In this document: positions 23,563-39,118 of the stretch, in pieces
Layout: every line of letters starts with the position of its first letter
Position numbering within the stretch: position 1 is the first letter of the stretch
Source of the DNA: Candidatus Yonathbacteria bacterium RIFOXYC2_FULL_47_9
GTDB lineage: Bacteria; Patescibacteriota; Minisyncoccia; Phycocordibacterales; UBA1550
Reading direction: 5' to 3'
Assembly (NCBI GenBank): GCA_001825115.1
Contig: MHUY01000016.1
Coordinates: forward strand, 13,792 to 53,492
Length of the DNA stretch: 39,701 bases
Program-made: the position numbers and the translations under genes
The notes under the pieces: generated by a model
Database searches by the model: none
Seen by the model: the letters and a program-made list of their open reading frames with translations, nothing else
What the model was told of the DNA's origin: nothing

Positions 23563-23573
23563 AGTGATTGATA

Positions 23574-24710
23574 TTAACGATTAAAAAGTTGCATGTATTC
23601 CTTGAGGTAGAAGATCCTATCTTTCTTCAGTCCTGTTTTTTCCGTGAACAATCCAAGCTTCTGAAAGTCTCCAGCAAGAGCTGACGCCGTGGGGAAAGTA
23701 ACCGAAAGCATTGACTCAATATCCCTGATACTCACCACGGGCTGAGAGAACAACTTTTTCAAAAGATCCTTACCAAGCTTCTGCCGACGAATACTCATCC
23801 CATCCTCAATTGCTGTTTCGTACTTCTTACGCAGGTCAATTATTCTTCTAAGTGTCTCTCGCGAGTCTTTTGCCGTCTCTACAACTCCTGTGAGAAAAAA
23901 TCTCAACCAGTGCTCAATATCACCTGACTCCCTCACGCGTGAAAGTCCGTCGTAGTATTCAGGACGATTCTTTTCAAAGAAGTCTGAGAGGTAGAGTGTT
24001 GGCTTTGTGAGTATACCGAGACTTACGAGATGCAGAGTTATCATAAGCCGACCTATACGACCATTACCATCAAGAAACGGGTGGATAGTTTCAAATTGAT
24101 AGTGAGAGATAGCGATCTTAATCAAATCTGGCACGCTGATGTCTTTATTGTGCCAAAATAGCTCAAGGTCACCAAGAAGCTCTGCGAGCTCAGTGTGATG
24201 AGGTGGAATAAAGGACGCGTCGTTCAACGTCGCTCCACCAATCCAGTTTTGACTACGACGAATTTCTCCAGGCAGTTTTGTGTACCCACGAACACTAGAC
24301 AGGAGTACTCGGTGAGTATCCTTAACGAGTCGCATAGAGAGTGGCAAGGTCTCGAGTTGTCCAATTGAATAATTGATTGCCCTGACGTAGTTTTGTACTT
24401 CCTCCCAGTCATTTCTTTTTTCTGGATTGATTTCAAGTTCAGGCAGCAGTGCCTCATCAAAGCTTGTTTGAGTTCCCTCAATTTTACTTGAGACCGTCGC
24501 CTCTTTCGTAATGTGCATTTTGATGAAAAAGTCGACATCAGGAATAAGCTTTGAATATGCATTAAGTTCGCCAAGGTAGCGCATCGCATCAGCGAGCAAA
24601 ATATCGATGCGCTTGTCAGACCACTCAAAAGGAATGTTTGCAGATGATGGCTGAAAACTCTTATATCCCTCCTGTTGTTTTAGTGTCCCCGCCTTGAATT
24701 TCTTTATCAT
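23574..24710 (-). CDS. Fic family protein (AMPylase type with N-terminal inhibitory helix)
   Basis: The Fic motif is [12 protein letters not shown]. The N-terminal SSKIEG fits the (S/T)xxxE(G/N) auto-inhibition motif. It is the first gene of the R-M operon, 11 nt upstream of hsdM. Confidence 0.9.
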
Positions 24711-24912
24711 CCATCAAGCCTAGCACTTTAATATATAATATGCAAATTAAAAGTTTACCTACCATATTTTAATACGTCAGAGCCGTATTAAAGGCTGAGA
24801 ACACCCTTCTGAAGCTCTTTTTCTTGTATTTCACAAAAGCGATGACTTTGTATCAAATGTGAAATGCCCTATTAACACTATCCGAATCGATGGTGACCTC
24901 AAATGGACTAGA

Positions 24913-24950
24913 AACGAAAAATCGCCACCAGTTGGTGACGATATTTCGTT
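24913..24950. promoter_or_regulatory. 18-bp-arm inverted repeat in the intergenic region upstream of fic and ORF 25051
   Basis: AACGAAAAATCGCCACCA (24913-24930), a GT loop, then TGGTGACGATATTTCGTT (24933-24950). There are two mismatches in 18 bp. Confidence 0.4.
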
Positions 24951-25050
24951 GGCACTTGGCTACGGTTTATGATTTAACCGTGGGAGAACTAGGTCCTCAC
25001 AAATGCCTACAAACAGCATACACGATATACTTTAAAATGCACTCATTTGC

Positions 25051-25368
25051 ATGACTCTCTACGCTATAGTCCAAAAATATGCAATACTGCATAAACATAT
25101 GACTACAAAATATAGCGAAGAGTTTAAGGCCGACAATCCGGTACTCCCTCAATTACGTGAGGTGGTAGAAGAATCTGTAAAAGGCTCCAACCTCTCTCAG
25201 GAGCAAATTGATGCTATTTGTAAGAATGTTGGTGCTTTAATACTGGAAACAGTCCCAGAGCTTGTTTTTACAAACATGTCCGATTCGTTCCTTTTTGAAG
25301 GAGGCTTTGAAGAATGCACAAAACAGTCTTTCATTAACCTAAAAAATATCGGCATTGAGAAGAAATGA
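25051..25368 (+). CDS. Hypothetical protein
   Basis: A 105-aa ORF, the only plausible plus-strand gene here. No motif was recognised. Confidence 0.4.
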   Translation: MTLYAIVQKYAILHKHMTTKYSEEFKADNPVLPQLREVVEESVKGSNLSQEQIDAICKNVGALILETVPELVFTNMSDSFLFEGGFEECTKQSFINLKNIGIEKK

Positions 25369-25415
25369 AGTGGCCACCGCTTGATCCATCTTTTCTTGCA
25401 GAGAAACTCGGGGGG

Positions 25416-26306
25416 TTATTTTTGCTCCCAATACTGCGTTCCATATTCTGCTTGCAAATCACTAAAATTCACGATTGGTGCATTATATGTACTATCGGGA
25501 GGTATAAAATCAATTGACTCCATAAATACTTCTCCTGCTTTCCGTATCTCGGCGGTGTCAGCATACAGTAGGGCTATATTGTTTGTAATAGTCGAATACC
25601 AAACGTTGCTCTTAAGCCCCTCTGCAAATGTATTAAAATATGCTGGAAGAAGATACCGGGTCTTCCCTTCATCGTAAAAGACACGTCCTACTAGCGGATT
25701 TTGTTGAACGAGCTTTACTGCTGTTTCTGCAGTTGGGAACAATGCCTTTTCAAAACCTTCTTGCGCTGAATTCTTTATTGCAATCTGCATCGCCAAATCT
25801 ATCCAGGAAGTCGAGGTTGGGTGAGTATCAGGTGGCTCGCCGACCTCCTGAATAGGGCTAGACTTGACCCAGTCATACAGTTCTTGAACGAGCGTTTCTA
25901 AGGCTATGTTGTAATATTTAAATGCGTTATCTGTGTCTTTTGCTTTTTTATAGGTAAGAGCCAAACTGTTTAGAACGTCCATCCTTTCGAAGAAAGTCGT
26001 GTCATTTGAAAATCCATCAACATTTTTTTTGAGGTACTCTGTAGCTTTTCTATAGTCACCTTTTATTTGATAAATAACCCCGAGTTCAAAATTGAGGTCG
26101 TTTGAATCTGGGTATAAAGTAATCGCTTTTTTGCAAAATTCCTCGGCTCCATCTAAGTCTTCTATTTTTCTTGCAACATACGCCGAATAGTACCAATAAT
26201 CTAGGTCTTTTTGAGCTTCTTGCGTTCCAGACAAAATGTTTTGTGCAGAAGAATAGTCACCAACTCTGAGAAAAGCTTGGATTTGCTTATGTTGTTCTTC
26301 TTGCAT
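25416..26306 (-). CDS. TPR-repeat protein
   Basis: The N-terminal half contains successive 34-aa TPR-like units (W/Y-x-x-A-x-x-x-x-x-x-x-x-x-A-x-x-x-F-x-K-A, for example DLDYWYYSAYVARKIEDLDGAEEFCKKAITLYP). It lies 55 nt downstream of the GmrSD-like gene. Confidence 0.75.
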   Translation of the reverse strand: MQEEQHKQIQAFLRVGDYSSAQNILSGTQEAQKDLDYWYYSAYVARKIEDLDGAEEFCKKAITLYPDSNDLNFELGVIYQIKGDYRKATEYLKKNVDGFSNDTTFFERMDVLNSLALTYKKAKDTDNAFKYYNIALETLVQELYDWVKSSPIQEVGEPPDTHPTSTSWIDLAMQIAIKNSAQEGFEKALFPTAETAVKLVQQNPLVGRVFYDEGKTRYLLPAYFNTFAEGLKSNVWYSTITNNIALLYADTAEIRKAGEVFMESIDFIPPDSTYNAPIVNFSDLQAEYGTQYWEQK

Positions 26307-26360
26307 AATTTATTAATTGTTTGTGGGAGAATTCTTTATTCCAATTACCTCAACACATGA

Positions 26361-28502
26361 TCAAGCATCAGCATCTTGTCCCATCTGCTTCTCAAAAGCT
26401 TGCCTAACCAACCCCATTACGTAAGGTAGTTCCTCCATCTTTGAAAGACTAACTTCAACATCGCCATTACCCCAGCGACCAAGCGTTGAGACGTCTTTAC
26501 ACATTCCTTTTGGATCATCGACGTCAGCAAACTCAACATTCAATGAGAGTCGTAAGCGTTTTGCTTGAGGAACTACATCAACAAAATTAGTATCTGCTTT
26601 GTACGCAACATACAACTTCAGGAATGTTTCCGTAACACAGGGGTCGAGGGTAAGCACTTCCTTTCGGAAGGCCTCAAAAAGATTTCTCACCTCATCCCCA
26701 TACATTTCACTGCCTTTTGCCAAATAAGGATGGTCATCGATGGAGTATTCTGTCTTGATTTCAACTTTTGGATAATATTCGTCTAGGATTTCTTGAGGTA
26801 GTACCGGGGCCTGCCAAACACCAACCGCTATACCAGCAAGCTTACTAGCACGGGCTTTAATTGTGGCCTCATTCCATGATTCTAATGCCCCAAGTCCAAT
26901 ATTAAGCTTTAAGGGGCTTTGCTTTAATCCCTTCTCTGGAGCATTTGGCATGTCACGCTTATCTGCAAAAGGACGATCACTGTATTCAGAATTATATGCG
27001 GTGAGAGTTAAGTTACCGAGTGTGTGCAGCCATGTTTGTTGAACCCGTTGCCATTCTCCGCCTAGGGCATCAATCCATTCAGGTGAAAGATTTTTGTTTT
27101 GTGGCATGAGATGCTCAATAGTAAACTCATTTACTATTGCTCGTTCTTGGCGACCATGATTCTCCAGGCGACGCAGCCAGTAGCTACAACTACGGAAGTT
27201 GTAGAGATCGCGTGTTTGTAAGTCTCGGTGGAATTCTTCGTCTGTAGGAAATCGATGGAATGTTTGTAGCCCGAGAAAATGCGCTTGAATGCTTTCGAAA
27301 TACCGGTCCTTTCTCAGAGCCTTAGCAAACGATGCAAATGTCTTATTCATTGAGTTGGTTGGGATGGCACATATTGCACGGCGAAATACGTACGCCTCAA
27401 TCAACCGCACGCTCGCCAGCAAGTCTGACTTGGATAACATGCCTGCTTTGTAGTCATGGTACAACTCCAATAGAAACGGGTAGGCTACATCAACTTTTAG
27501 TTCCCTTAAGTCCTGGAAGGCAAGCTTCAGGTCGGCATCTGGCTCAGCGCCTAACGCCATTGTACAAAAATACCGTGCATAGTCACGTATATCACGAGTC
27601 AAATCTTCTACATGACTTTCATCATTAGTGGCATTTATTCTTGAAACTCGAGCATGTTCCTTGAAAGCATCGTAAACAGCATTAATATTAGGAATCTCCC
27701 TTGTTTTAACAGTAAGGTAGTGACGCATAAAAGCATCAAAGTGTGTACCATAGGCTTCCTGCCCAAAAGCAACTTCCATTGGCCTCCAGTACTGTTCATA
27801 GAGCCGAGTCTGAAGCTCTGGCTCGAGTCCCATTAAGATATAATTACGGATTAAATCAGCCTCACTCAATTCCTTACCAAGTGAGTTCATGCTCTCGAAA
27901 ATAAGCTGTGGGTTATCCTCCCCACGCTTGAGCTTGACGTCTACCATCAAAAGCTTTGCGAGTCCTTTGCAGACTACAGATAAGTCTCCTTTTTGACTTG
28001 AAATCAAGTCCTCGAACAATTTGAAGTTCTGCGTAATTCGTAGTGAATACTCGCTGGGTTGGTCTTGATTACCTATAATCGCAACAAGTGAGGTCTTATC
28101 GGTCTGCGAGAGAATTAATTTGAAGTATCGTTCTCCTTGTTCTAGTCGGTTGCATAAGTAATATTCACGTATCATCTCTGCGGAAAAACCTTCTATTAAA
28201 CTGGTCGAATCCTCTACCTTAGACAAAGCTGCCAGGAGTAACGTCACGGTAGTCAGACGCTGTTGCCCATCAATCACGAGTAATGGTTCCCACATTGCCA
28301 CATTAGCATCAGCCCTATCAATATAGACAACAGAACCAATAAAATGCACTACAATGTTGTCGTCGGCACCAGCTCGGAGGATATCATCCCAAAGCTGAAG
28401 ACATTCCTTCTCAGTCCAACAGTATGTACGCTGGTAAATAGGGATAACAAACTGAGGAGCATTCTTCAGGAAATTAAGGAGTTTTGTTTCAGATGCTTTC
28501 AT
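26361..28502 (-). CDS. GmrSD-like type IV (modification-dependent) restriction enzyme: DUF262 plus DUF1524 plus C-terminal extension
   Basis: DUF262 motifs are IPIYQRTYCW and DGQQRLTT. The DUF1524 His-Me finger block is FTIEHLMPQN...LGNLTLTAYNSEYSDRPFADK. There are an extra ~150 aa at the C-terminus. Confidence 0.85.
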   Translation of the reverse strand: MKASETKLLNFLKNAPQFVIPIYQRTYCWTEKECLQLWDDILRAGADDNIVVHFIGSVVYIDRADANVAMWEPLLVIDGQQRLTTVTLLLAALSKVEDSTSLIEGFSAEMIREYYLCNRLEQGERYFKLILSQTDKTSLVAIIGNQDQPSEYSLRITQNFKLFEDLISSQKGDLSVVCKGLAKLLMVDVKLKRGEDNPQLIFESMNSLGKELSEADLIRNYILMGLEPELQTRLYEQYWRPMEVAFGQEAYGTHFDAFMRHYLTVKTREIPNINAVYDAFKEHARVSRINATNDESHVEDLTRDIRDYARYFCTMALGAEPDADLKLAFQDLRELKVDVAYPFLLELYHDYKAGMLSKSDLLASVRLIEAYVFRRAICAIPTNSMNKTFASFAKALRKDRYFESIQAHFLGLQTFHRFPTDEEFHRDLQTRDLYNFRSCSYWLRRLENHGRQERAIVNEFTIEHLMPQNKNLSPEWIDALGGEWQRVQQTWLHTLGNLTLTAYNSEYSDRPFADKRDMPNAPEKGLKQSPLKLNIGLGALESWNEATIKARASKLAGIAVGVWQAPVLPQEILDEYYPKVEIKTEYSIDDHPYLAKGSEMYGDEVRNLFEAFRKEVLTLDPCVTETFLKLYVAYKADTNFVDVVPQAKRLRLSLNVEFADVDDPKGMCKDVSTLGRWGNGDVEVSLSKMEELPYVMGLVRQAFEKQMGQDADA

Positions 28503-30326: not shown

Positions 30327-30370
30327 GCGAGGATTATACCATAATACTCGCTGTCTATTTACTATACTCG

Positions 30371-30475
30371 TCAATTATCACCCTTTGAACTTCATCCCAG
30401 GTGCGGAGCCAGCAAAATCACCCATATTTATATGGGTGATTTTCTTTACCACACTTAGGAGATCGAACCTACGGC
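30371..30475. repeat. tRNA-Asn 3'-half-like palindromic intergenic repeat, copy A
   Basis: The copy is 105 nt and has 9 mismatches to copy B by hand alignment. Its core is GAACTTCATCCCAGGTGCGGAGC (30387-30409). The central hairpin is AAAATCACCCATA/TATGGGTGATTTT (30414-30443). On the minus strand, 30461-30473 reads CGTAGGTTCGATC, identical to tRNA-Asn 7403-7415. Confidence 0.8.
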
Positions 30476-30488
30476 CGAATACTTTTCC

Positions 30489-31235
30489 CTACTTTGAATA
30501 TATAGCTAATTTTTGAGAAAAATCTTCTTCGAGTTCTTCAATACTCTTTCCTGTATGCTTTTGGTATTTCTTACGTATGGTCTCAGCGGTTTCTTCGCGA
30601 GTACATTCTGTATATAATTTCTTAAATACTTCTAATCCAAAAGTTTCTATAAGGTATTTAATCCATTCGCCCGCAAGCGCATAAAAATAAACCGCACCAT
30701 CCTGAGGAGTATCCAGCCAATCCTTTTCGGTAAGTATTTTTGATGGACTTAATTCATAGCCCTTAGCAATACCTTCTCTGACACACTCATCATGTGGCTC
30801 GCCATACCAATTGTGTCCCACCATATACTCTGCCAACCCCTCCTGTAGAAAATTAATTGAGATTCCCCAAGGAAGTGTCAGCAGATGAGTATCTTCATGT
30901 TCACCAATAGGCTTATCCTGTAGTGTGTATAAAACGTGAATACAAAATTCACCATAAATTGATTGTGCAAACCAATCATCTCCCATTAGTTCCGTTTTGA
31001 GTTCTGGGGTTGGATAAAAATAATATGTTATTTTCTGACCTAAGACAGGTACCTTGAGCTCGGTCACTATTTTTTGGAATGCTTGCTCTTGACGTTCTTT
31101 AATATGTTCGATATCTTTTTCTGCTTCAGAACCCTTAGTATAATAGAAAATATAATGTTCGGTTTCGACAGTAAGCCACCCCGAATACTCCTGAAATGTG
31201 TGGGAATAAGTTGGAAGATATTGTTTGTATTTCAT
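30489..31235 (-). CDS. Peptidase-MA-like zinc metalloprotease-domain protein
   Basis: An HExxH motif (GEHEDTHLL) is followed about 20 aa later by EGLAEY. That is the gluzincin arrangement seen in Peptidase_MA_2-type proteins. Confidence 0.6.
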   Translation of the reverse strand: MKYKQYLPTYSHTFQEYSGWLTVETEHYIFYYTKGSEAEKDIEHIKERQEQAFQKIVTELKVPVLGQKITYYFYPTPELKTELMGDDWFAQSIYGEFCIHVLYTLQDKPIGEHEDTHLLTLPWGISINFLQEGLAEYMVGHNWYGEPHDECVREGIAKGYELSPSKILTEKDWLDTPQDGAVYFYALAGEWIKYLIETFGLEVFKKLYTECTREETAETIRKKYQKHTGKSIEELEEDFSQKLAIYSK

Positions 31236-31280
31236 AAAAGGAAAGGTGGCTCTTAGAAGTTCAAGCCCCCCTTGACACTA

Positions 31281-31308
31281 TTGACATTAGCAAAGGGGTT
31301 GCTATAAT
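31281..31308 (+). promoter_or_regulatory. Near-consensus sigma70 promoter pointing antisense into the NYN gene
   Basis: TTGACA (31281-31286, with a second TTGACA at 31272-31277), a 16-nt spacer, then TGcTATAAT (hexamer 31303-31308). Confidence 0.45.
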
Positions 31309-31333
31309 ATGCATATCACTACGAAAGAGACCC

Positions 31334-31852
31334 TTATGCAGATACGTCTGCATCGGGGGCTTTTTCTTTTTGTCTCTCCGTAGAAAACTTATGGTAATGT
31401 TCATTCAAAAAAGTTATCTCTGTATTCTTATTTTTTAACAAGATAGAGCATTTCTTTTCGTCAGGAGAAACAACGCAATCAATCGCTTTGCTATTTTGCA
31501 AAAACTCCACCAAGCACCCGAAGTCACCATCTCCTGTTACCAAGATGCAGGAAGTAAATGCTTTTGTATAAAAATCTGATACGGTTTTAAGAACGAGCTC
31601 GGCATCACAATTACCTTTTATTGTTCCTCCAAATGATACCGTTTGCTTGAAGACAAGAATGAAGCCACATTCCTGGAGATGTTCATAGAATGATGTCCTG
31701 CTGGGCACAAGACCGATAAAAAGGTAGACGTTCGCAGGGCTGTATTTTTGACGGAGCCACCCACGAAACTTTTTATAATCTATTTCAAAACCTAGCTCTT
31801 TTGCAGAGCGATAAAGATTATTCCCATCGATGTAGATGTTTACTTTATTCAT
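31334..31852 (-). CDS. NYN-domain (LabA/DUF88-like, PIN-related) protein
   Basis: VNIYIDGNNLY near the N-terminus and LVTGDGDFGCLVEFL are the characteristic acidic NYN motifs. Confidence 0.8.
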   Translation of the reverse strand: MNKVNIYIDGNNLYRSAKELGFEIDYKKFRGWLRQKYSPANVYLFIGLVPSRTSFYEHLQECGFILVFKQTVSFGGTIKGNCDAELVLKTVSDFYTKAFTSCILVTGDGDFGCLVEFLQNSKAIDCVVSPDEKKCSILLKNKNTEITFLNEHYHKFSTERQKEKAPDADVSA

Positions 31853-31888
31853 AAAACTATTCTAACACACAAAATTTAATTGTTTTCC

Positions 31889-31993
31889 TCAATTATTACC
31901 CTCTGAACTTCATCCCAGGTGCGGAGCCAGCAAAATTACCCATATTTATATGGGTAATTTTTGTTACGACACTTAGGAGCTCGAACCTAAGGC
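31889..31993. repeat. tRNA-Asn 3'-half-like palindromic intergenic repeat, copy B
   Basis: The core is at 31905-31927. The hairpin is AAAATTACCCATA/TATGGGTAATTTT (31932-31961). The two hairpin differences from copy A (C to T, G to A) are compensatory. The T-arm-like CTTAGG-AGCTCGAA-CCTAAG is at 31972-31991. Confidence 0.8.
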
Positions 31994-32015
31994 GTGACTG
32001 CGATTCTACGACATA

Positions 32016-32044
32016 TTGCCTTATTCCTAAAACTAACCTAAAAT
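32016..32044 (+). promoter_or_regulatory. Candidate promoter giving a near-leaderless transcript for ORF 32054
   Basis: TTGCCT (32016-32021), a 17-nt spacer, then TAAAAT (32039-32044). The ATG at 32054 is only 9 nt past the -10 hexamer. Confidence 0.35.
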
Positions 32045-32053
32045 GTACATACT

Positions 32054-32662
32054 ATGAAATCAGGAACACTATTGCTTACCTCGATAGGACTATCTTCGCC
32101 AAATGTACTCAGTAGATTTCTTGAGATAGTTGGGGACACAAAGAATAAGCAGGTGGCGATTATCACGACTGCAGCCGAGGGGAAAGAAGTCAATAAGTAT
32201 TCTCAACTAGCCCACAAGCAGTTTGTAGACTTAGGCTTTTCAGGCGTAGATTTTGTTGACCTAGAAGCAGATCCGACGAAAGACCTTTCCCCATACGGTG
32301 TTATTTATGTTTGTGGTGGTAACACTTTTAAACTCCTTAAGTTTGCTCTAACAGCAAACTTTAAAAATTCCGTTGAATCATTGCTAAAAATGGGAGGTGT
32401 ATATATTGGCGTAAGCGCTGGAAGTATCATTGTTGGTCCATCGGTGAAAATTGCTGATGAAGTTCAGCCCGATCCCAACGAGGTTGGTATTAGTGATTTT
32501 TCAGGGCTTGGTATAATCAAAGAAATAGTCCTGCCACATTATTCTCCTGAGATTGAAGAGCAGGTAAAGATATTCGAAAATAAACACAATGTTATCATTG
32601 ATAGAATAGACAATTCCCAAGCTATTTTGGTGCAAGAAGGATATAAAACAATTATTGAATAA
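32054..32662 (+). CDS. Peptidase S51 (peptidase E-like) family protein
   Basis: VCGGNTFKLL and the nucleophile elbow GVSAGSII, plus a downstream LPHY, fit the S51 Ser-His layout. Confidence 0.75.
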   Translation: MKSGTLLLTSIGLSSPNVLSRFLEIVGDTKNKQVAIITTAAEGKEVNKYSQLAHKQFVDLGFSGVDFVDLEADPTKDLSPYGVIYVCGGNTFKLLKFALTANFKNSVESLLKMGGVYIGVSAGSIIVGPSVKIADEVQPDPNEVGISDFSGLGIIKEIVLPHYSPEIEEQVKIFENKHNVIIDRIDNSQAILVQEGYKTIIE

Positions 32663-32666
32663 AAAA

Positions 32667-32694
32667 ATAGAGGCATACAAAAGTATGCCTCTAT
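32667..32694. terminator. Bidirectional hairpin between convergent genes
   Basis: ATAGAGGCATAC, an AAAA loop, then GTATGCCTCTAT form a perfect 12-bp stem. It is preceded by an A-run and contains the stop codon of ORF 32691..33473. Confidence 0.6.
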
Positions 32695-33473
32695 AAAGCT
32701 AACAACTTACTAATTTCACTGATAATCACACTCACTTCTTCCATATCTTTTGGTGTGAACCGTGAAAGACGGAGAGCGAGCTTATATACAGGTAAACTGG
32801 AAGACTCAAGGAGGTGTGCCTGCTCAGCAAGCGATCTAAATCCTCGGAAATAGCAACGACTCCGAGCAAACGCGAGCCTGGTCAGCGAAGCCGTGATATC
32901 TGAGATGCATAAATTAAACTCAATCGAGCCCACACTTTCGTGAAGTTTCCCGAGTGTATTTAATTTCTGTTTAATCTCTTCTACACATAGTTCGCTGATT
33001 CCCTGTGAAAGCGATAGTGGGTATGGGATAATCAACTCCTTAATTTTGGAATGAATCCTTTTTGGATCATGCAGAGATTCTGCCGTGGCAAGATCCCCAC
33101 ACAACGCTTCAGGAACCCAATATCCAGTAGCCCAAGAACGATGTTGTCCATCGAGATCTTTCCTTTCTGTCCATTTTTGAATTTGTCCGACAAGCACAGA
33201 GGAGTTGCATACCGCAACCCCACCGCAACCTGTCGGTAACTCAAAACGAACACTATCATCACACACGGATAAATTTCCATTAGGCAAACAGTCTTTCAAG
33301 ATAGACTCGATAGTGGGGCCATATTTGTAAATATCCCCACCATCACATCCCACCAATAGATCAACGTGATTTTTTGGCAAATTCCTGTTTAACCCAACTA
33401 GCAAAAGTATTTCCATTCCTTGCATGTTGCGTAGTGCATGAGATAGCTCCGAAACAATCTGGCCTTTTTTCAT
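32691..33473 (-). CDS. Unknown protein, last gene of the AlaRS-like/radical SAM operon (nucleotidyltransferase fold only a weak guess)
   Basis: A 260-aa ORF. Its start overlaps the upstream stop as ATGA, preceded by AAAGGAG. LLLVGLNRNLPKNHVDLLVGCDGGD vaguely resembles an hG[GS]...D-x-D nucleotidyltransferase segment, but the motif is degenerate. Confidence 0.6.
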   Translation of the reverse strand: MKKGQIVSELSHALRNMQGMEILLLVGLNRNLPKNHVDLLVGCDGGDIYKYGPTIESILKDCLPNGNLSVCDDSVRFELPTGCGGVAVCNSSVLVGQIQKWTERKDLDGQHRSWATGYWVPEALCGDLATAESLHDPKRIHSKIKELIIPYPLSLSQGISELCVEEIKQKLNTLGKLHESVGSIEFNLCISDITASLTRLAFARSRCYFRGFRSLAEQAHLLESSSLPVYKLALRLSRFTPKDMEEVSVIISEISKLLAL

Positions 33474-34600
33474 ACCGACTCCTTTCTGTCAGAACATTCA
33501 TCAAGCTCAATGAGAACCGCTGAATATCCAAACGTAGATGCAAGATATTTGATATCATGTTCGTTAAGCAATCCTGTTTTTTGAGATTTGAGTTTTATGT
33601 ACTCCCTCCTCCCTCGTACAAGACTTTGTTCGAACTTTGATACCTCTTTCGTAAGTACCTGCAGAACGGTGTTCCGAGTAGCTTCTACTGAAACCCAGTA
33701 ATTGATTGATATCACACAGAACTCCTTGAATGGCAGCGAAATCTGCTGGCAAGTTACGTACGCTTCCCGAATGATTTTTCGGAGCACATATTCTGCCGCC
33801 TTATTGCCTGGGACAAGCCCTTGAGAAACCAACAAAGTTGACGCCTTACCTAAATCAGCAAGCCGACATACTTTTGTGTAGCTATGGTTTGAAGAACATT
33901 TCTCAAGAGATTGCACAACCTGTTTCCATAAGGAATTTTCATAGTTGTTGCTACAGTGTTCAATTACCGTAACAATGCGATCAATACTTGCCCCAGAATC
34001 TGCTGCGATTTTCTCCATTGGAGAACAAAAAAGAGTGTTGCCCTGGAATTGTGTAAAAACTAAATTCCAGAGCTCAGTCAATTTCATTGTTTCTGGATTT
34101 TGCCACACAATTTCTGTTCGCAATCCGCACAGTGTTTTAGAAGGAGTAAAAGCCACATTCTCGTTATTCGAGATTGTTTCAACCCCTAACCCATCCCAAA
34201 CTTTTTGTGATACATCATCTTGCGGATGAACCGTTGCTAAAAGGTTGCGCGAATTTATCCCCGCGCAATCAGTTAAAAATTGCCAAGCACTTTCAATCAT
34301 CAAGCTCTTTACCGCCTGCTCGTCATTTTCGTAAAGTGAAAAATGGCCAAGCATGTCGAACGCAAGATGATGTCTTCCAGAAATACCAATCTTTTCCCAT
34401 CCATCAGTTCTCAAGCAGGTCTGAATCGAGGATATTCGTGGAACGTTCGCGGTTAACCCGCGAGCTATCGCGTCCTCGAATACAACCCCGCCTGAGATAT
34501 TAAACAGAAGTTTCTGGTTGAGACTAATGATTGGGTCACTTTCTTTCCATCGGAAACCGTAGTTTCCAAAATGGTTTTTGATATCATTTCGCAATTTCAT
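33470..34600 (-). CDS. Stand-alone AlaRS-like protein (aminoacylation plus tRNA-recognition region only; no editing or C-Ala domains)
   Basis: Block-by-block resemblance to AlaRS: GRHHLAFDMLGHFSL (RHHTFFEMLGNFSF), LTELWNLVFTQFQ (IEIWNIVFMQFN), ADSGASIDRIVTVIEHCSNNYE ([22 protein letters not shown]) and AAEYVLRKIIREA (RGYVLRRIIRRA). The ATG at 34600 gives MKLRNDIKNHFGNYGF. Confidence 0.8.
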   Translation of the reverse strand: MKLRNDIKNHFGNYGFRWKESDPIISLNQKLLFNISGGVVFEDAIARGLTANVPRISSIQTCLRTDGWEKIGISGRHHLAFDMLGHFSLYENDEQAVKSLMIESAWQFLTDCAGINSRNLLATVHPQDDVSQKVWDGLGVETISNNENVAFTPSKTLCGLRTEIVWQNPETMKLTELWNLVFTQFQGNTLFCSPMEKIAADSGASIDRIVTVIEHCSNNYENSLWKQVVQSLEKCSSNHSYTKVCRLADLGKASTLLVSQGLVPGNKAAEYVLRKIIREAYVTCQQISLPFKEFCVISINYWVSVEATRNTVLQVLTKEVSKFEQSLVRGRREYIKLKSQKTGLLNEHDIKYLASTFGYSAVLIELDECSDRKESV

Positions 34601-35823
34601 GGAGAACCTCCTTTCGCTAGATGTTTGAATACCGTCTGTCTGATGGCATAAGTGAATGTGCTCATATCTGGATGAGTGACAAGTCCATAATTTTGATCCC
34701 ACCTGACAACGTGAGCAGAAATACCCAAATTGTCTAGGATGATCTGCGCGTGTTCAGTTGTCATGCTACAAGAGGATTTTTGAGCACAGATTTGTCGCTG
34801 AGCGAGGGGGCAATGAGATGACTCACATTCCTCTCGTGCAAAGATTTGGACCGAAGTAATACTTGGTAATCCGAGCATCTTTGTTAATGCGCATGAAGAC
34901 TTGAGGTACACGGGGACTCCAGGGAAGTGCTCCTCGCTTAAAGAAAGAATGGTATCCACTAAATCTTTAGGCAAGGACTTCACATTGTCGTCACGAGGAA
35001 TGTTTGGCATAGGGAGCTTATGAATTTCCACAAGACCATTTTCTATGCCTTCAGTCCAACGTAACCCTCCGGGGACAATCATGTCAATAACGTTTCCATA
35101 ATGTTTCTTAACCCACAGCATCATCATCTCAATTCTGTCCGGATTTCCACTCCACTCTGGAACAATCGGGCGCATATACCATGCAATAATAACTCCCGCT
35201 TCCTTTGCTTCTTCGACACTAAGAAAGCGATTATTACGAACAGGCTCAATCGTGTCAGGATTATCTGCCCAACATATCGAAATCATGAGCCCGCGAGTTG
35301 CTCTGGTAATTCTTGCCAGATCGAGTTTCCTCCCTTTAGGGATTCCACCCTTAGTGACAATCCAGAAAGGGTTTTTGAATCCCCTCCTCACGAACGATTC
35401 CATAATCTCGAAAGTGCTGTCAGTCACCTGTCCTGGGGCAAATGGCTCCGTACTCGCTGTCCCAATGCTGATCACCGTTTCATCAACAATGAAAAACGGA
35501 TGCTTCACTAATTCATCAATGATCTGATCAACAGTAAAAGAATTGCGCCGCTGAGGCTTCCTCGGCATCATTCCGTGTTCGACAAGATCTTGATGCGTGC
35601 CCTGCACATGACAATATCTGCATTGCCATGCACAACCAGCCCACAAGTCTATACTCAGTGAGTTGTTGGACACACTTACCGACGAAAGAGGATGTTTGCA
35701 GTCGGGAACAAGAACTCCGTATGTATATTCACGCAAAGAGAACTCTTGCCCAGTAGTCATTCCCTTAATTTGAACGATGGGCTCCGAATTTGCAGCCGTA
35801 AAGTAGTCCCGTTTAGATTTCAT
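34597..35823 (-). CDS. Radical SAM protein, SPL/COG1533-like
   Basis: The CxxxCxxC motif sits in SIDLWAGCAWQCRYCHV, the context typical of the spore-photoproduct-lyase-like radical SAM group. The protein is 408 aa with a C-terminal Cys cluster (CESSHCPLAQRQICAQKSSC). Confidence 0.75.
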   Translation of the reverse strand: MKSKRDYFTAANSEPIVQIKGMTTGQEFSLREYTYGVLVPDCKHPLSSVSVSNNSLSIDLWAGCAWQCRYCHVQGTHQDLVEHGMMPRKPQRRNSFTVDQIIDELVKHPFFIVDETVISIGTASTEPFAPGQVTDSTFEIMESFVRRGFKNPFWIVTKGGIPKGRKLDLARITRATRGLMISICWADNPDTIEPVRNNRFLSVEEAKEAGVIIAWYMRPIVPEWSGNPDRIEMMMLWVKKHYGNVIDMIVPGGLRWTEGIENGLVEIHKLPMPNIPRDDNVKSLPKDLVDTILSLSEEHFPGVPVYLKSSCALTKMLGLPSITSVQIFAREECESSHCPLAQRQICAQKSSCSMTTEHAQIILDNLGISAHVVRWDQNYGLVTHPDMSTFTYAIRQTVFKHLAKGGSP

Positions 35824-36569
35824 ATGGCTGCTCCTTTCAAGTAGTTGATATTCTGAACTATTTGGTCTGTAGTTGTCATGCCGACAACTACAGATGTTTC
35901 TAGTTTCAGAGTACGCGTTAAGATTTCCATCGCCGATACGTCAGCTTGTCGTTCGTCGCTCATCAAAATCTTTCCTTGCAGAAAGAGACTTCTGAGTAAT
36001 ACTTCCTTCCCTAACCTCTTTAGCTGTGGGAGCTGATAAACTATCCACTGCTCGTGAAGATTGTACGGTGCTTCAATTACATCAATATGTTCAAGAACAC
36101 TTTCATCAATGTAATCAGAAAAACCATTGGGAAGAGAGATGCCAACTTTCCTAACGACACCAATTTCTTTTAGCTCATTTAGGGCTTTAAGAATATGGGT
36201 AGCATTTTTTTGCCATAATGGTATCCAGTTGTGTAGCAATAAGATATCAATCGAATTTCGCCCGAGCCTACTTAAAGACTGCTCTGCGCTTCGATGAATG
36301 TTGTCACGTGAGTAACATTTATCGATAGGCATTTTGGTGTCGGGCTTCAAGATTGCAGGGATCTTTGTGAGGATCACCGCTTCTTGCGACAGACATGCTC
36401 CGAGTATTTTCTCGACATTTCCTTGCCCATAGACTGCTGCTGTGTCAAACTTGTAGATTCCGTGAGATAGTGCGAGCTGAATCAAATTCTCAATCTGTGT
36501 ATTCGTAAGATCTTTGAACTGCCCAGATAATTGCCATGTGCCAAAATAGAGGCGATCGTTCCATTTCAT
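35820..36569 (-). CDS. Aldo/keto reductase family protein (short form)
   Basis: FGTWQLSG...FDTAAVYGQGNVEKILG carries the Asp and Tyr of the tetrad. LTKIP carries the Lys and IDILLLHNW the His. AAGGAGG lies 7 nt upstream of the ATG. Confidence 0.85.
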   Translation of the reverse strand: MKWNDRLYFGTWQLSGQFKDLTNTQIENLIQLALSHGIYKFDTAAVYGQGNVEKILGACLSQEAVILTKIPAILKPDTKMPIDKCYSRDNIHRSAEQSLSRLGRNSIDILLLHNWIPLWQKNATHILKALNELKEIGVVRKVGISLPNGFSDYIDESVLEHIDVIEAPYNLHEQWIVYQLPQLKRLGKEVLLRSLFLQGKILMSDERQADVSAMEILTRTLKLETSVVVGMTTTDQIVQNINYLKGAAI

Positions 36570-36733
36570 GATATTTCCTCCTTGTAATGTCTAAAGTTGT
36601 AAATGAACAAATGGTTCGTCTGCCATAAATCTACAACATACATCGCCGCTCGTCAAGCTTTGACTAAAATCGCAATGTGTATTACTGTGCAGTAAGTCTC
36701 GATCTTTAAAATCTACGATAAGGAGTATATGAA

Positions 36734-37657
36734 ATGAAAATTATTGCCGTGAGTTCTTCTACGTATTCACAAATTGAAGCAAGTCTATGGAAAGATGACA
36801 GATTTCAGCCGGTCGGTGACCACAAGGTAAAGATAGAGCTGGATGATGGCTCAATCGTGGAAGCAGGTGTTTTTGAGGTAACGAAGGGTCACAAAAAAGA
36901 ATTTCATGCATGCATATCCACGCAGGCCGGCTGTAAATTCAAATGCTCGTTTTGTTCTTCTGGTGCTAGGGGTTTTGAGAGAGATTTATCTTGTGATGAA
37001 ATCCTCGAAGAAATTTCAATTCTGGCAAAGTTGGCAAAGATAGAATCATTTGATCGCCTGATGTATATGGGAATAGGTGAGCCGATGGATAATTTTGACA
37101 ATGTTGTTGGAAGCATACAACAACTTCTTGAAATTAATCCCGCGTATGTTGGCAGAATTTCTTTAGCAACAATTGGTATACTGCCAAAGTTGCATAAATT
37201 AGCATTGCTCAAGCTTCCCTTAAGAAGGATCTGGGTGTCTCTGCATGCAGCCTCTGACGAAAAAAGGTTGCAGATTATGCCCATCAGCAAAGTATATAAA
37301 GCTAAGGAACTTGTAGTCGCAGCAAAAGCCTTTGCTGAAGTCTCTGGTACAGAAACATGGCTTAACTATATGATCTTTCAAGGCTTCAATGATTCTCTGG
37401 AAGATGCTTCGAAGTTGGTTGAGTTGCTTAAAGACACCGAAGACGATTTGTCTGTGGTAATCACTGTTCCCAATGGCGAGAGGTCTGGCTATGTTGGGGG
37501 CAGTTTGGAAGATGTGCATAGATTCCAAAATTATCTCATAGAGCTGGGAATGAAGAATCGTACAGAGCACTTTTTTTCTGTCGGACGCTCTTCAAACGCG
37601 GGCTGTGGGGAATTCGTTTTCTACCCCAGCAGTACAAAAATAGCTGTTTGTAGTTAA
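36734..37657 (+). CDS. RlmN/Cfr-family radical SAM methyl synthase, N-terminally truncated
   Basis: HACISTQAGCKFKCSFCSSGARGFERDLSCDEI aligns to [33 protein letters not shown]. Other matching blocks are MGIGEPMDNFDNVV, ISLATIGILPKL, VSLHAASDE and a C-terminal NAGCGEF (AACGQL). AAGGAG lies 8 nt upstream of the ATG. Confidence 0.85.
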   Translation: MKIIAVSSSTYSQIEASLWKDDRFQPVGDHKVKIELDDGSIVEAGVFEVTKGHKKEFHACISTQAGCKFKCSFCSSGARGFERDLSCDEILEEISILAKLAKIESFDRLMYMGIGEPMDNFDNVVGSIQQLLEINPAYVGRISLATIGILPKLHKLALLKLPLRRIWVSLHAASDEKRLQIMPISKVYKAKELVVAAKAFAEVSGTETWLNYMIFQGFNDSLEDASKLVELLKDTEDDLSVVITVPNGERSGYVGGSLEDVHRFQNYLIELGMKNRTEHFFSVGRSSNAGCGEFVFYPSSTKIAVCS

Positions 37658-37684
37658 ATAAAATTGTATATATTTTAGAACTGA

Positions 37685-37713
37685 GGGGTTCACTGTGTGG
37701 ACCCCTTTTTTTT
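37685..37713 (+). terminator. Rho-independent terminator after the RlmN/Cfr-like gene
   Basis: GGGGTTCA, a CTGTG loop, then TGGACCCC, followed by TTTTTTTT. Confidence 0.65.
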
Positions 37714-37745
37714 ATTACCTCTCTTCCTTGCTTAGTGGTTTTCTT

Positions 37746-37863
37746 CAATAATTATTTGCTGAACTTCATCCCAGGTGCGGAGCAATAAAAGAAATGGCCC
37801 TCTTCTGAGGGTCTTTTCTTTTATCTAGCTTCCGCGAGTGTGGGGACCGAACCGTAGGCTCCC
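37746..37863. repeat. tRNA-Asn 3'-half-like repeat, copy C (diverged outside the core)
   Basis: Bases 37759-37783 (CTGAACTTCATCCCAGGTGCGGAGC) are identical over 25 nt to copy B 31903-31927. A different hairpin plus T-run follows at 37796-37820. A minus-strand GGTTCGGTCCCC T-loop-like segment lies at about 37842-37855. Confidence 0.7.
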
Positions 37864-38039: not shown

Positions 38040-38495
38040 ATGGAAATTAGAGACTATAATAAAAAGGACAAAGAAGCGGTGCAAAATATTTTTACCAAGT
38101 ACTGGACTGACGAGGAATTCTTGAGCGAGCTCTCAGAAAATATAGATAGTGGCAAGATGCATTTTTATGTTGCAGAAAAAGATGGAGAAGTGATTGGTGT
38201 TGCTGGGTTTAGAGAAGCACCAGAATACCTTCATGATTATGCGGAAACAAAAAATCCCGCAGAGTTGTATGTAGTAGCTTCTCAATTACAAAATGAAGGT
38301 ATTGGGAGCATGCTTGTACAAAAAGTAATTGATGAAGCAAAGAATTTATATTTTACAGAAATAGAATGCTATAGCCCTGAAACCCATAGTAGCTCATGGA
38401 AATTCTATGAGAAACTTGGGTTTACGAGACACGGAATTATCAAGGATCCTGACGATGGATACCCCGGAATGCTCTGGAGAAAAATTATTTTATAG
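38040..38495 (+). CDS. GNAT family N-acetyltransferase
   Basis: The protein is 151 aa. The acetyl-CoA binding motif A is LQNEGIGSMLVQKVIDEA, and FYEKLGF is present near the C-terminus. Confidence 0.85.
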   Translation: MEIRDYNKKDKEAVQNIFTKYWTDEEFLSELSENIDSGKMHFYVAEKDGEVIGVAGFREAPEYLHDYAETKNPAELYVVASQLQNEGIGSMLVQKVIDEAKNLYFTEIECYSPETHSSSWKFYEKLGFTRHGIIKDPDDGYPGMLWRKIIL

Positions 38496-38671: not shown

Positions 38672-39118
38672 ATGAAAGACATCACCCTCCATGCCAAGTG
38701 GCTTATCAAGGCTCCTCTAACTGAGGTGTTTAACGTAATGACTGACTTTGAAAAATGGCCTGACTATTTTCCAAAAGTTGCGGAATCTATACAAGTCGTG
38801 AAGCGCGACGGAAATAATTTAGAAATGATTGCGACCGTAAAATCGTTTGGTAAAAAGTTTCCCGTAAAAATGAAATACCAAATCCTCCCAGGGAAAGGGT
38901 ACATTTCCGATAATGAAAACCCTGAATTTGGAACTTCTGGCCACGAAGAATTTTTACTCTCTGAACACCCCGAAGGAACGATAATCGATTACACGTATCA
39001 AGTTGCCATTCATCGACGCTTACTTCGCATAATTGCACGTCCACTCATTGGTTGGTTTTCCATGAAGTACTGGCAGAAAGCTGTCATAGATGAACTAAGA
39101 AAAAGACTCGAGAAATAA
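38672..39118 (+). CDS. SRPBCC (START/polyketide cyclase-like) family protein
   Basis: The protein is 148 aa. APLTEVFNVMTDFEKWPDYFP is the typical N-terminal beta-alpha signature of this fold family. Confidence 0.7.
   Translation: MKDITLHAKWLIKAPLTEVFNVMTDFEKWPDYFPKVAESIQVVKRDGNNLEMIATVKSFGKKFPVKMKYQILPGKGYISDNENPEFGTSGHEEFLLSEHPEGTIIDYTYQVAIHRRLLRIIARPLIGWFSMKYWQKAVIDELRKRLEK

Follow-up and report, generated by a model that had tools for sequence, protein, structure and literature searches.

A repeat-bounded cassette with a short RlmN homolog

A stretch of 39,701 nucleotides from Candidatus Yonathbacteria bacterium RIFOXYC2_FULL_47_9, a member of the Patescibacteriota, was analyzed (hereafter the window), and a cassette of six genes flanked on both sides by 59-nt repeats was found in it (Table 1). 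The open reading frame next to the right-hand repeat, which a first-pass annotation of the window had assigned to an RlmN/Cfr-type methyl synthase, is real and has the length described there; its product is named here RlmN-short. The same annotation had noted a divergent pairing of this gene with the AlaRS-like operon, and this was also correct; the operon encodes an aldo/keto reductase (AKR), a radical SAM protein and the AlaRS-like protein. The presence of an intrinsic terminator of its own indicates that RlmN-short is monocistronic. The repeat-bounded cassette adjoins a defence island. A generic tRNA T-loop motif search for att remnants gave no match. Membership of a known defence system was considered and rejected, PADLOC having returned no match for the cassette genes and a meaningless 16.5-bit match for RlmN-short.

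Table 1. Features of the window cassette. Identities refer to the counterparts at related loci (L010, L205–L207).
Feature	Position	Strand	Description
Repeat copy B (families D1/D2)	31876–31993		Left boundary of the six-gene cassette; repeat search
Peptidase S51 (PepE/cyanophycinase-like)	32054–32662	+	PF03575, E = 1.4e-26; 43.5% identity in L010
260-aa protein	32691–33473	-	28% identity to the L010 258-aa protein, 48–63% in L205–L207; conserved in type-B cassettes
Stand-alone AlaRS catalytic-core paralog	33470–34702	-	Likely start ATG at 34600; PF01411, E = 7e-46
408-aa SPL/Rv2578c-like radical SAM protein	34597–35823	-	Weak Radical_SAM and NF038135 matches; 62% identity in L010
AKR	35820–36569	-	First gene of the partner operon; PF00248, E = 3.7e-30; 46% identity to L010 counterpart
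Divergent intergenic region, AKR operon/RlmN-short	36570–36733		164 bp; promoter-like matches weak only
Ribosome-binding site AAGGAG	36720–36725	+	8 nt upstream of the RlmN-short ATG; read from sequence
RlmN-short	36734–37657	+	307-aa class-A radical SAM methyl synthase without N-terminal HhH2 domain
Intrinsic terminator	37683–37707	+	11-bp stem, 6 GC pairs, T-run; 26 nt past the RlmN-short stop; terminator scan
Repeat copy C (family D1)	37732–37790		Right cassette boundary; 81% identical to copy B; 75 nt past the RlmN-short stop

The best-conserved gene of the cassette is that of the 408-residue radical SAM protein, for which more than 250 homologs were found. The AlaRS-like protein scored 158.9 bits against TIGR00344, for which the cutoff is 457, and the true alaS of the genome lies on contig 7. 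The S51 peptidase likewise fell under the cutoff of the PepE model NF003642 (52.6 bits), and the 260-residue protein matched no Pfam or NCBIfam model.

Conserved catalytic residues and altered substrate contacts

To our knowledge, RlmN and Cfr are the only class-A radical SAM methylases; both act on the same adenine of rRNA, RlmN also acts on A37 of tRNA, and we know of no member acting on a non-RNA substrate. RlmN-short contains a Radical_SAM domain (PF04055, E = 2.6e-14) with the CxxxCxxC [4Fe-4S] motif and a partial TIM barrel. Its best-scoring family model was TIGR00048, with 156.5 bits (cutoff 290) over profile positions 79–341, followed by clear failures with the RlmN model NF008396 (106.5 versus 633 bits) and with the Cfr models of the NF000424/TIGR04432 set (122 versus 530, 118.6 versus 550 and 118 versus 468 bits). 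No NCBIfam model is dedicated to this protein. An AlphaFold model (pLDDT 86.5) was superimposed by Foldseek on RlmN structure 5hr7 with a TM score of 0.81 and an rmsd of 3.0 Å, whereas the TM score to Cfr (9p0p) was just 0.64. Thus, with an identity of 26–27%, RlmN-short shares the fold of E. coli RlmN, the enzyme that makes m2A2503 in 23S rRNA and m2A37 in tRNA.

The residues required for catalysis were examined in a phmmer alignment to E. coli RlmN (3rf9). Cys60 corresponds to C118, Cys67, Cys71 and Cys74 to the cluster ligands C125, C129 and C132, and Cys291, in the motif NAGCGEF, to C355. The mechanistic pair, consisting of the methyl carrier (C355/C338) and the resolving cysteine (C118/C105), is therefore retained as Cys291 and Cys60, as had been claimed, and all five cysteines are invariant among the 28 members of the subfamily to which RlmN-short belongs. 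Mutagenesis of Cfr identified E91, F118, S212 and H214 of the SAM site as essential (PMC2836569). The corresponding residues are widely kept across the subfamily (S169 and H171 in 28/28, F73 in 25/28 and E43 in 22/28 members); by comparison with Cfr, S189 is replaced by Ala in 27 of the 28. Judging from these conserved residues, RlmN-short is apparently a catalytically competent class-A methyl synthase, in agreement with the annotation. The reaction would involve a methyl-Cys291 intermediate and a 5'-deoxyadenosyl radical, with Cys60 as the resolving residue.

By contrast to the catalytic core, the N-terminal HhH2 domain of about 60 residues is absent from RlmN-short. Pfam detected Radical_SAM alone, with no match to RlmN_N (PF21016), and the start of the TIGR00048 match at profile position 79 bears out the earlier statement that most of the RNA-contacting domain is gone. 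The annotation had placed about 36 residues ahead of the first strand; the N terminus is indeed short, but the count is 30, the strand KVKIELDD beginning at K31. The alignment leaves 26 residues ahead of the beta-extension, versus a median of 64–78 in canonical enzymes. A mis-called start or a split gene was rejected as the cause: the frame stays open for only four codons upstream of the ATG (311 residues in all), so that the truncation does not arise from the choice of start, all 28 subfamily members are about 300 residues long, and a search of the 92.7%-complete genome revealed no separate RlmN_N domain. In Cfr this domain anchors the enzyme to the junction of H90/91/92 and has been termed crucial for rRNA binding (preprint 10.64898/2026.02.27.707579), and the point mutations R25A and Q28A within it lower activity (PMC2836569).

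RNA-contacting and pocket residues were compared by homologous positions, rather than by model geometry, between the 28 subfamily members and sets of 19 CPR and 36 other canonical sequences. R or N stands at the positions equivalent to Cfr R184, R249, N288 and R327 in 17–19 of the 19 CPR sequences and in 30–36 of the other 36. In the subfamily, these positions are occupied by G/N/K, T/I/V, S/G/K and A/V/E, respectively, the R327 column being uncertain by one or two residues; near this uncertain column, 19 of the 28 members carry a basic residue at position 279. Judged from the aligned positions, the RNA-backbone contacts common to RlmN and Cfr have thus been lost. Net charge has no discriminating power for RNA binding, E. 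coli RlmN (pI 6.6) being as neutral as the subfamily (pI about 6.5).

The substrate pocket also differs. Single substitutions of Y97, W101, S103, S151 or F330 impair the resistance conferred by Cfr; together with Q329, these are residues specific to the Cfr active site that C8 methylation and resistance require (PMC12887959). The subfamily carries L/V/I, E, H, H/R, A/S and A/V at the positions of Y97, W101, S103, S151, Q329 and F330. The U-turn residue R/W101 corresponds to E56 of RlmN-short, and H58, W167 and W209 are new residues invariant in the subfamily. Residues that hold the ribose and phosphate of A2503 (N288, R327 and S/T103) are changed, and the backbone positions that read N1 and N6 of the adenine sit in a conserved AGCGEF loop context. 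Taken together, E56, H58, W167, W209 and F47 would form a rebuilt pocket in an enzyme that has given up, with the HhH2 domain, the Arg/Asn contacts by which RlmN and Cfr dock on folded rRNA or tRNA.

The extent of this remodelling, with two new Trp, one His and one Glu, together with the changes in the ribose- and phosphate-holding residues, would also suit a substrate other than adenine. In such a case the class-A mechanism would be applied to an entirely new scaffold, for example another sp2 carbon of a cassette product or a residue in a protein or peptide. However, the conserved context of the adenine-reading loop argues against this, as does the finding that the gene has no constant partners other than adenylate-forming enzymes (see below), and we consider a substrate of this kind quite improbable.

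A rare clade of horizontally moving genes

In phylogenetic analysis RlmN-short was placed in a clade of its own (SH-aLRT 98), separate from housekeeping RlmN and with the Cfr references across that branch. Constraining the subfamily to form a clade with Cfr gave a tree 51.6 lnL units worse (p-AU 0.033), and this grouping was rejected. The subfamily is small and sharply bounded, comprising about 30 clusters among 5.8 billion, with scores dropping at its edge from 264 to 153 bits and from 227 to 211 bits. Apart from the window genome, six other species among about 185,000 carry the gene, and a match at the subfamily level was obtained in 1 of 401 genomes of the phylum. The 251 matching plasmid records were all below 60% identity and all canonical rlmN or cfr, and viral contigs contained no relative, for which reason a phage origin was discarded.

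The possibility that RlmN-short is a housekeeping RlmN that has degenerated, or been pared to a minimum, in a reduced genome was weighed against these data. The annotation had regarded a housekeeping origin as the outcome to be accepted if this were the only rlmN homolog, grouped with the RlmN of related organisms and were short throughout the lineage. It is indeed the sole rlmN homolog of its 828-kb genome, a second full-length gene having been sought in vain, and CPR genomes commonly shorten proteins. However, its place in the tree is outside housekeeping RlmN, and the short form is not found throughout the lineage: none of 40 relatives of the genus or order has RlmN-short or any other rlmN homolog, canonical CPR RlmNs keep both the N-terminal domain (median of 64 N-terminal residues) and the RNA contacts, and canonical RlmN coexists with the short form in three of five other carrier genomes. 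Its location between the cassette repeats, next to a defence island, and the failure to reach the family cutoffs point in the same direction, and a housekeeping role is barely credible. RlmN-short is thus a rare accessory gene that moves horizontally, in line with its earlier description as part of accessory DNA and in contrast to the vertical inheritance of rlmN. It is probably neither the housekeeping m2A2503/m2A37 enzyme nor a Cfr-type resistance enzyme.

Synthetase-like partners and candidate substrates

The neighbourhoods of the subfamily genes were compared across loci. A stand-alone aaRS-like paralog lies near the gene in 12 of 15 loci; among the rest, no recognisable one was found at L005 and L126, both well assembled, or on the 3-kb contig of L048. 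These partners belong to four families, AlaRS-like, class I LysRS, class IIb Asn/Lys-like and the PheS-related SrmL, and they are extra copies beside the genuine synthetases. An S66 or S51 peptidase usually accompanies them. The window and L010 have five orthologous cassette genes in common, with the aaRS alone swapped. At L125 the gene stands within a tight co-directional operon (aaRS, methyltransferase, S66 peptidase, RlmN-short, aaRS; 5-nt gap). Type-B cassettes, by contrast, usually do without RlmN-short, which indicates that the gene is dispensable there; in those of L205–L207 a second AlaRS-like gene takes its place next to the AKR gene. RlmN-short is thus portable between cassette types. 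In Thermoactinomyces, a relative of the cassette additionally encodes an MFS exporter, ATP-grasp ligases and a carrier protein, a layout typical of small-molecule biosynthesis.

Adenylate-forming enzymes related to aaRSs, serine peptidases and SAM-dependent methyltransferases are also combined in known pathways. In the microcin C system, MccF is an S66 immunity peptidase, and in that of ascamycin, whose adenine is modified at C2, the AlaRS-like AcmD/F are found together with AcmE. The likeness is confined to this logic: neither MccA/MccB-type nor sulfamate genes were observed, and RlmN-short has no homology to enzymes of these pathways. Literature searches retrieved nothing relevant on class-A enzymes in natural-product clusters, or on MccF, aaRSs and radical SAM enzymes in Patescibacteria.

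Gene context and the loss of RNA contacts led us to favour a small-molecule reading, to which we give a probability of roughly 45%: RlmN-short would be a C-methylase for tailoring or immunity that joins the synthetase-like enzymes in modifying an adenine nucleotide or the 3' end of tRNA. The synthetase-like partner would activate an amino acid with ATP, or load it onto an adenosine 3' end, and RlmN-short would then methylate that adenine at C2 or C8, whether it is part of a small molecule (adenosine or an aminoacyl-adenylate-like compound) or of an unstructured tRNA 3' end. Encoded in the same small cassettes, the serine peptidase (S66 of the MccF/LdcA type or S51 of the PepE type) could hydrolyse the aminoacyl bond as a step of self-protection or maturation, alongside other tailoring enzymes. 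A bolder and rather unlikely form of this proposal would make RlmN-short unprecedented among class-A methyl synthases in acting naturally on something other than folded RNA: an adenine nucleotide, a small molecule of the aminoacyl-adenylate type or the free 3' end of a tRNA, provided by a stand-alone aaRS paralog. The subfamily would then define modular cassettes (aaRS-like enzyme, C-methylase and peptidase) with which ultra-small bacteria make or neutralise an aminoacyl-nucleotide, the amino acid being set by exchange of the synthetase.

The usual absence of RlmN-short from type-B cassettes would suit a role in resistance or immunity no less than one in tailoring. The methylase could instead protect the ribosome of a producer, if the cassettes make an aminoacyl-nucleoside that targets translation and RlmN-short methylates A2503 or a nearby adenine of the peptidyl-transferase centre. 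Its monocistronic, divergent arrangement speaks for this, as does its optional and portable nature, which is often seen in resistance genes; the second AlaRS-like gene found in its place at L205–L207 is possibly an alternative immunity device, and the window genome offers no other rlmN. Against this stand the missing rRNA-anchoring domain, the loss of the RNA contacts shared by RlmN and Cfr, and the position of the gene in L125, in mid-operon between the genes for the S66 peptidase and an aaRS-like protein. Together they make protection of the ribosome improbable. Its Cfr-type version, proposed in the annotation, is not supported, given the scores far under the Cfr cutoffs, the different residues at positions needed for resistance and the rejected common clade. 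Cfr, which makes m8A2503 in 23S rRNA and confers PhLOPSA resistance, resembles RlmN-short in the residues of the class-A mechanism and in being a horizontally moving accessory gene, but it possesses the N-terminal domain. In resistome surveys, RlmN-short should not be annotated as a cfr-like determinant.

A folded tRNA was also considered as substrate. RlmN-short would then be a methyltransferase dedicated to an adenine (A37 or another) of the particular tRNA that its aaRS-like neighbours employ, and would tune or mark a pool of aminoacyl-tRNA for a tRNA-dependent pathway. RlmN is by nature dual-specific and methylates A37 in several tRNAs, including tRNA-Asp (PMC5130265). A tRNA is, moreover, a possible substrate common to the aaRS-like partners; at L005 the subfamily gene adjoins that of a CCA-adding enzyme, and at L007 there is a gene of the LPG_synthase_C type, a family which we take to comprise aminoacyl-tRNA-dependent transferases. 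However, canonical recognition of tRNA includes the reading of G29 by R206, and a 17-mer stem-loop is not a substrate, extended recognition being needed (PMC5130265), whereas the matching arginines and the N-terminal domain are lost in the subfamily. Several partners lack anticodon-binding parts, such as the AlaRS core of 410 residues and the AsnA-like proteins of 372–388 residues. A tRNA or structured RNA encoded in cis was rejected as the substrate, no tRNA gene being consistently present at the 12 other loci searched and Rfam yielding sub-threshold matches only near RlmN-short. On balance, the odds are clearly against a folded tRNA. Three genomes nevertheless have a gene of a separate short RlmN-like lineage in one operon with genuine aspS, which favours tRNA as a shared substrate and counts against the small-molecule reading.

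Irrespective of its substrate, the subfamily constitutes a third, deep class-A clade that appears to have kept the chemistry and discarded the apparatus for docking on RNA, and that is tied genomically to four families of synthetase paralogs. If the small-molecule reading is true, the substrate scope of class-A enzymes would widen beyond rRNA, pointing to secondary metabolism or immunity chemistry in Patescibacteria, usually seen as metabolically minimal. It would also provide a handle on uncharacterised cassettes of aaRS paralogs, including those with SrmL (NF051887, a 'PheS-related mystery ligase'), on which no paper was found. The window cassette has an AlaRS-like paralog instead, but at L007 the subfamily gene lies next to one for a bona fide SrmL (372 bits versus a cutoff of 300), so that at least one cassette type overlaps a curated, uncharacterised system.

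Gene structure and catalytic residues of RlmN-short

RlmN-short proved to be a real ORF of 307 amino acids, with a 164-bp spacer between it and the divergently transcribed minus-strand operon (AKR / radical SAM / AlaRS-like / 260-aa protein); its own ribosome-binding site and terminator (Table) make it a self-contained transcription unit. Radical_SAM was the only Pfam domain detected. The best NCBIfam model was RlmN TIGR00048, which scored 156.5 bits (cutoff 290) and matched from profile position 79 onwards, and the Cfr models ranked next (118–122 bits, cutoffs 468–550). A phmmer search of PDB sequences aligned the protein with E. coli RlmN (E = 4e-27), mapping C60 to C118, C67/71/74 to C125/129/132 and C291 to C355, which bore out the first-pass annotation as to the cysteine cluster and both mechanistic cysteines. 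An AlphaFold2 model generated from a 17-sequence subfamily alignment (pLDDT 86.5, pTM 0.87) had RlmN 5hr7_A as its top Foldseek match (TM 0.81, rmsd 3.0 Å), and matched Cfr 9p0p with a TM of 0.64.

Only four codons are open 5' of the ATG, the short N-terminus is conserved throughout the 17-sequence alignment, and no RlmN_N domain (PF21016) was found elsewhere in the window genome (92.7% complete, 828 kb). As read from the sequence, the N-terminal truncation is genuine; the earlier claim of a short N-terminus stood in this respect, although KVKIELDD is preceded by 30 residues, not about 36.

Alanine substitution at Cfr E91, C105, C112/C116/C119, F118, S212, H214 and C338 abolishes or lowers function (PMC2836569). 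The corresponding window residues S169, H171, C67/C71/C74 and the mechanistic pair C60 and C291 are each conserved in 28 of 28 subfamily members, F73 in 25 and E43 in 22. C60, C67, C71, C74 and C291 are likewise invariant in the 17-sequence alignment, as are the motifs GEP, SLHA and AGCGEF. By these residues, the class-A scaffold of RlmN-short is judged to be catalytically intact.

Rarity and mobility of the subfamily

A search of 5.8 billion proteins yielded 16 subfamily clusters (298–310 aa, 42–94% identity), all lacking PF21016; a score gap from 264 to 153 bits separated them from canonical RlmNs of 340–400 aa containing that domain. When 1.84 billion representatives were searched exhaustively with a profile, about 15 representative subfamily clusters scored 227–424 bits and canonical-length proteins 211 bits or less. 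Only six other species genomes among ca. 185,000 carried a member (loci L043–L048), and among 401 sampled genomes of the phylum the window genome was the single carrier (499 bits), RlmN-type matches in 88 of the 401 being mostly of canonical length and scoring at most 202 bits. Searches for members on viral contigs and on plasmids found none.

RlmN-short is accessory and mobile. The six-gene stretch that opens with the S51 peptidase and closes with RlmN-short is flanked on each side by a copy of a 59-nt repeat; a third copy completes a family 81–86% identical to the reference copy, and a defence island lies upstream (Table). At other loci, a tRNA-Asn gene borders the L003 cluster, an integrase fragment adjoins the RlmN-short relative of L008, and L010 lies beside prophage-like genes. 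The end of the repeat family (...CATCCCAGGTGCGGAGCCA) resembles a tRNA 3' half.

Table. Coordinates of features in the window and at compared loci
Feature	Position	Strand	Remark
HsdM, type I restriction-modification	21574-23562		defence island
Fic protein	23574-24710		defence island
TPR protein	25416-26306		defence island
GmrSD type IV restriction enzyme with DUF5655 tail	26361-28502		defence island
Whole defence island	21574-28502		upstream of cassette
59-nt repeat, third copy	30358-30416		
Repeat-delimited cassette	30476-31875		HExxH-like protein and NYN protein
59-nt repeat, left-hand copy	31876-31934		
Repeat-delimited cassette	31994-37731		six genes, with RlmN-short
Ribosome-binding site AAGGAG	8 nt upstream of RlmN-short start	+	
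RlmN-short	36734-37657	+	
Strong intrinsic terminator	37683-37707		26 nt downstream of RlmN-short
59-nt repeat, right-hand copy	37732-37790		
GNAT acetyltransferase	38040-38495		just outside right-hand repeat
SRPBCC/polyketide-cyclase-like protein	38672-39118		just outside right-hand repeat
SrmL-type ligase	L007:1242-2462	-	
Second AlaRS-like gene	L205:11815-13107		
Second AlaRS-like gene	L206:11664-13043		
Second AlaRS-like gene	L207:5781-7142		
Short RlmN-like gene at aspS	L209:8166-8990	+	genome G091
Short RlmN-like gene at aspS	L210:7943-8788	+	genome G064
Short RlmN-like gene at aspS	L211:7262-8086	-	genome G182

Phylogenetic position and RNA-contacting residues

A tree of 97 sequences (IQ-TREE, LG+C20, quick search) included 28 subfamily members, their nearest canonical matches, 19 canonical CPR RlmNs and, as references, E. 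coli and Bacillus RlmN, Cfr, Cfr(C) and Cfr(D). The subfamily formed one group on a long stem (SH-aLRT 98), with every RlmN and Cfr sequence across that branch. The suggested Cfr-like placement was not upheld: constraining the subfamily to group with Cfr was 51.6 lnL units worse (p-AU 0.033), in a test run after inspection of the tree on a hypothesis that itself came from the first-pass annotation. L036 (G204:C2:84671-88474), a 394-aa ORF from Patescibacteria, grouped with Cfr, Cfr(C) and Cfr(D) (SH-aLRT 99), all nested inside the canonical CPR clade, and may be an environmental representative of Cfr-like genes, carried by a CPR genome.

RlmN-family matches were found in 0 of 24 same-genus and 0 of 16 same-order genomes, indicating that the lineage lives without rlmN and that RlmN-short was acquired. 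This, with its own clade in the tree, agrees with the earlier view of an accessory gene and makes a degenerate housekeeping RlmN barely credible. Three of five other carrier genomes encode a canonical-length RlmN on another contig (256–273 bits), so that RlmN-short is a non-redundant paralog.

In a cryo-EM structure of Cfr with an 87-mer rRNA, the HhH2 N-terminal domain anchors the H90/H91/H92 junction, and contacts of the radical-SAM domain and C-terminus are also listed (preprint 10.64898/2026.02.27.707579). Mapped onto the alignment, Cfr R184, R249, N288 and R327 were almost always kept in canonical sequences (19 from CPR, 36 others); the subfamily has G/N/K, T/I/V, S/G/K and A/V/E, respectively, the R327 column being uncertain by 1–2 residues. 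By this comparison, both the N-terminal domain and the shared RNA contacts have been lost. Canonical RlmN is inactive on a 17-mer stem-loop, and its R206 reads G29 (PMC5130265). In place of the residue that RlmN (R) and Cfr (W101) insert into the RNA U-turn, 23 of 28 members have Glu; the S/T103 position is His in 27, the T210/A position is an invariant Trp (W167) and the Y252/T position is Trp in 23 (W209). Net charge is no more than suggestive: median pI is 6.5 for the subfamily and 9.2 for canonical CPR RlmNs, and E. coli RlmN has a pI of 6.6.

Single substitutions at Cfr Y97, W101, S103, S151, Q329 and F330 impair resistance (PMC12887959). At these sites the subfamily agrees with neither Cfr nor RlmN, which speaks against the Cfr-type role proposed earlier; a self-resistance rRNA methylase is decidedly unlikely.

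Gene neighbourhoods and candidate functions

Context was surveyed at 15 non-redundant subfamily loci, few and related. In type A (nine loci: L003/L044, L008, L012, L013, L043, L045, L046, L047 and L125), RlmN-short is found alongside an S66 peptidase of the MccF/LdcA family, class IIb aaRS-like proteins (one or two per locus) and, in most cases, a UbiE-type methyltransferase. Two kinds of aaRS-like protein occur, AsnRS/AsnA-like (372–388 aa, 119–152 bits) and LysRS-like (416–435 aa, 189–229 bits), and all score below cutoffs. The five genes of L125 are co-directional with gaps of 5–36 nt, 5 nt separating the S66 end from the RlmN-short start. L046 (G443) and L047 (G442) are labelled 'Bdellovibrionales' and 'Gammaproteobacteria', labels that may be unreliable since these MAGs are only about 0.9–1.0 Mb.

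Type B (the window and L010) combines RlmN-short, AKR, a ~408-aa radical SAM protein, a ~260-aa protein, an aaRS and an S51 peptidase. The two loci share five orthologous genes (28–62% identity) and differ in the aaRS alone: L010 has a class I LysRS (313 bits, cutoff 148), the window a class II AlaRS-like enzyme. At L007, the RlmN-short relative is convergent with a gene matching NF051887, 'PheS-related mystery ligase SrmL' (372 bits, cutoff 300), which by its score is a bona fide family member; an NTP_transf_2 protein, a PLP decarboxylase, a class IV aminotransferase and an LPG_synthase_C protein are encoded nearby. No recognisable aaRS-like gene was found at the remaining loci, L005, L126 and the 3-kb contig L048. 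RlmN-short is repeatedly and tightly linked to aaRS-like paralogs of four families and a serine peptidase. The synthetases in the clusters are supernumerary: contig 7 of the window genome carries the true alaS, and in all five type-A genomes tested a full LysRS (468–521 bits) and an Asn/Asp-type enzyme are encoded elsewhere.

The partner radical SAM family is much larger (>250 homologs). No RlmN-like gene was found within 8 kb of three close type-B operons (L205–L207; radical SAM 70–81% identical), indicating that RlmN-short is an optional, portable module. Its position beside AKR is taken there by a second, divergent AlaRS-like gene (430–459 aa, ~24% identical to the window protein). An SRPBCC gene related to that outside the window cassette lies near the L207 operon. 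A Firmicute version of the AKR and radical SAM cassette (L208, Thermoactinomyces sp. DSM 45892, FNPL01000003.1) adds a PP-binding carrier protein, a class II aaRS-like ligase, two ATP-grasp enzymes and an MFS exporter, a small-molecule pathway layout; it also has an S51 peptidase, and prophage lysis genes adjoin.

We favour, with a probability of roughly 0.45, the reading that the substrate of RlmN-short is an adenine, presented or produced by its synthetase-like partner, to which it adds a methyl group at C2 or C8 as a tailoring or immunity step. This adenine would belong to an aminoacyl-adenylate-like or adenosine compound, or to a tRNA 3' end. Another kind of substrate is very unlikely.

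A dedicated tRNA methylase, an unlikely alternative, draws support from another, independent lineage of short RlmN-like proteins, encoded in an operon with genuine aspS. These proteins (L209–L211; 274–281 aa, TIGR00048 141–148 bits) are separate from the RlmN-short subfamily. Their genes lie directly downstream of, and co-directional with, aspS (793–808 bits), overlapping it in L210. The C118-equivalent is replaced by Y or F, and two of the three proteins have a Cys three positions further on; the C355-equivalent is kept. Two of the genomes, G091 and G064, also encode a canonical RlmN.
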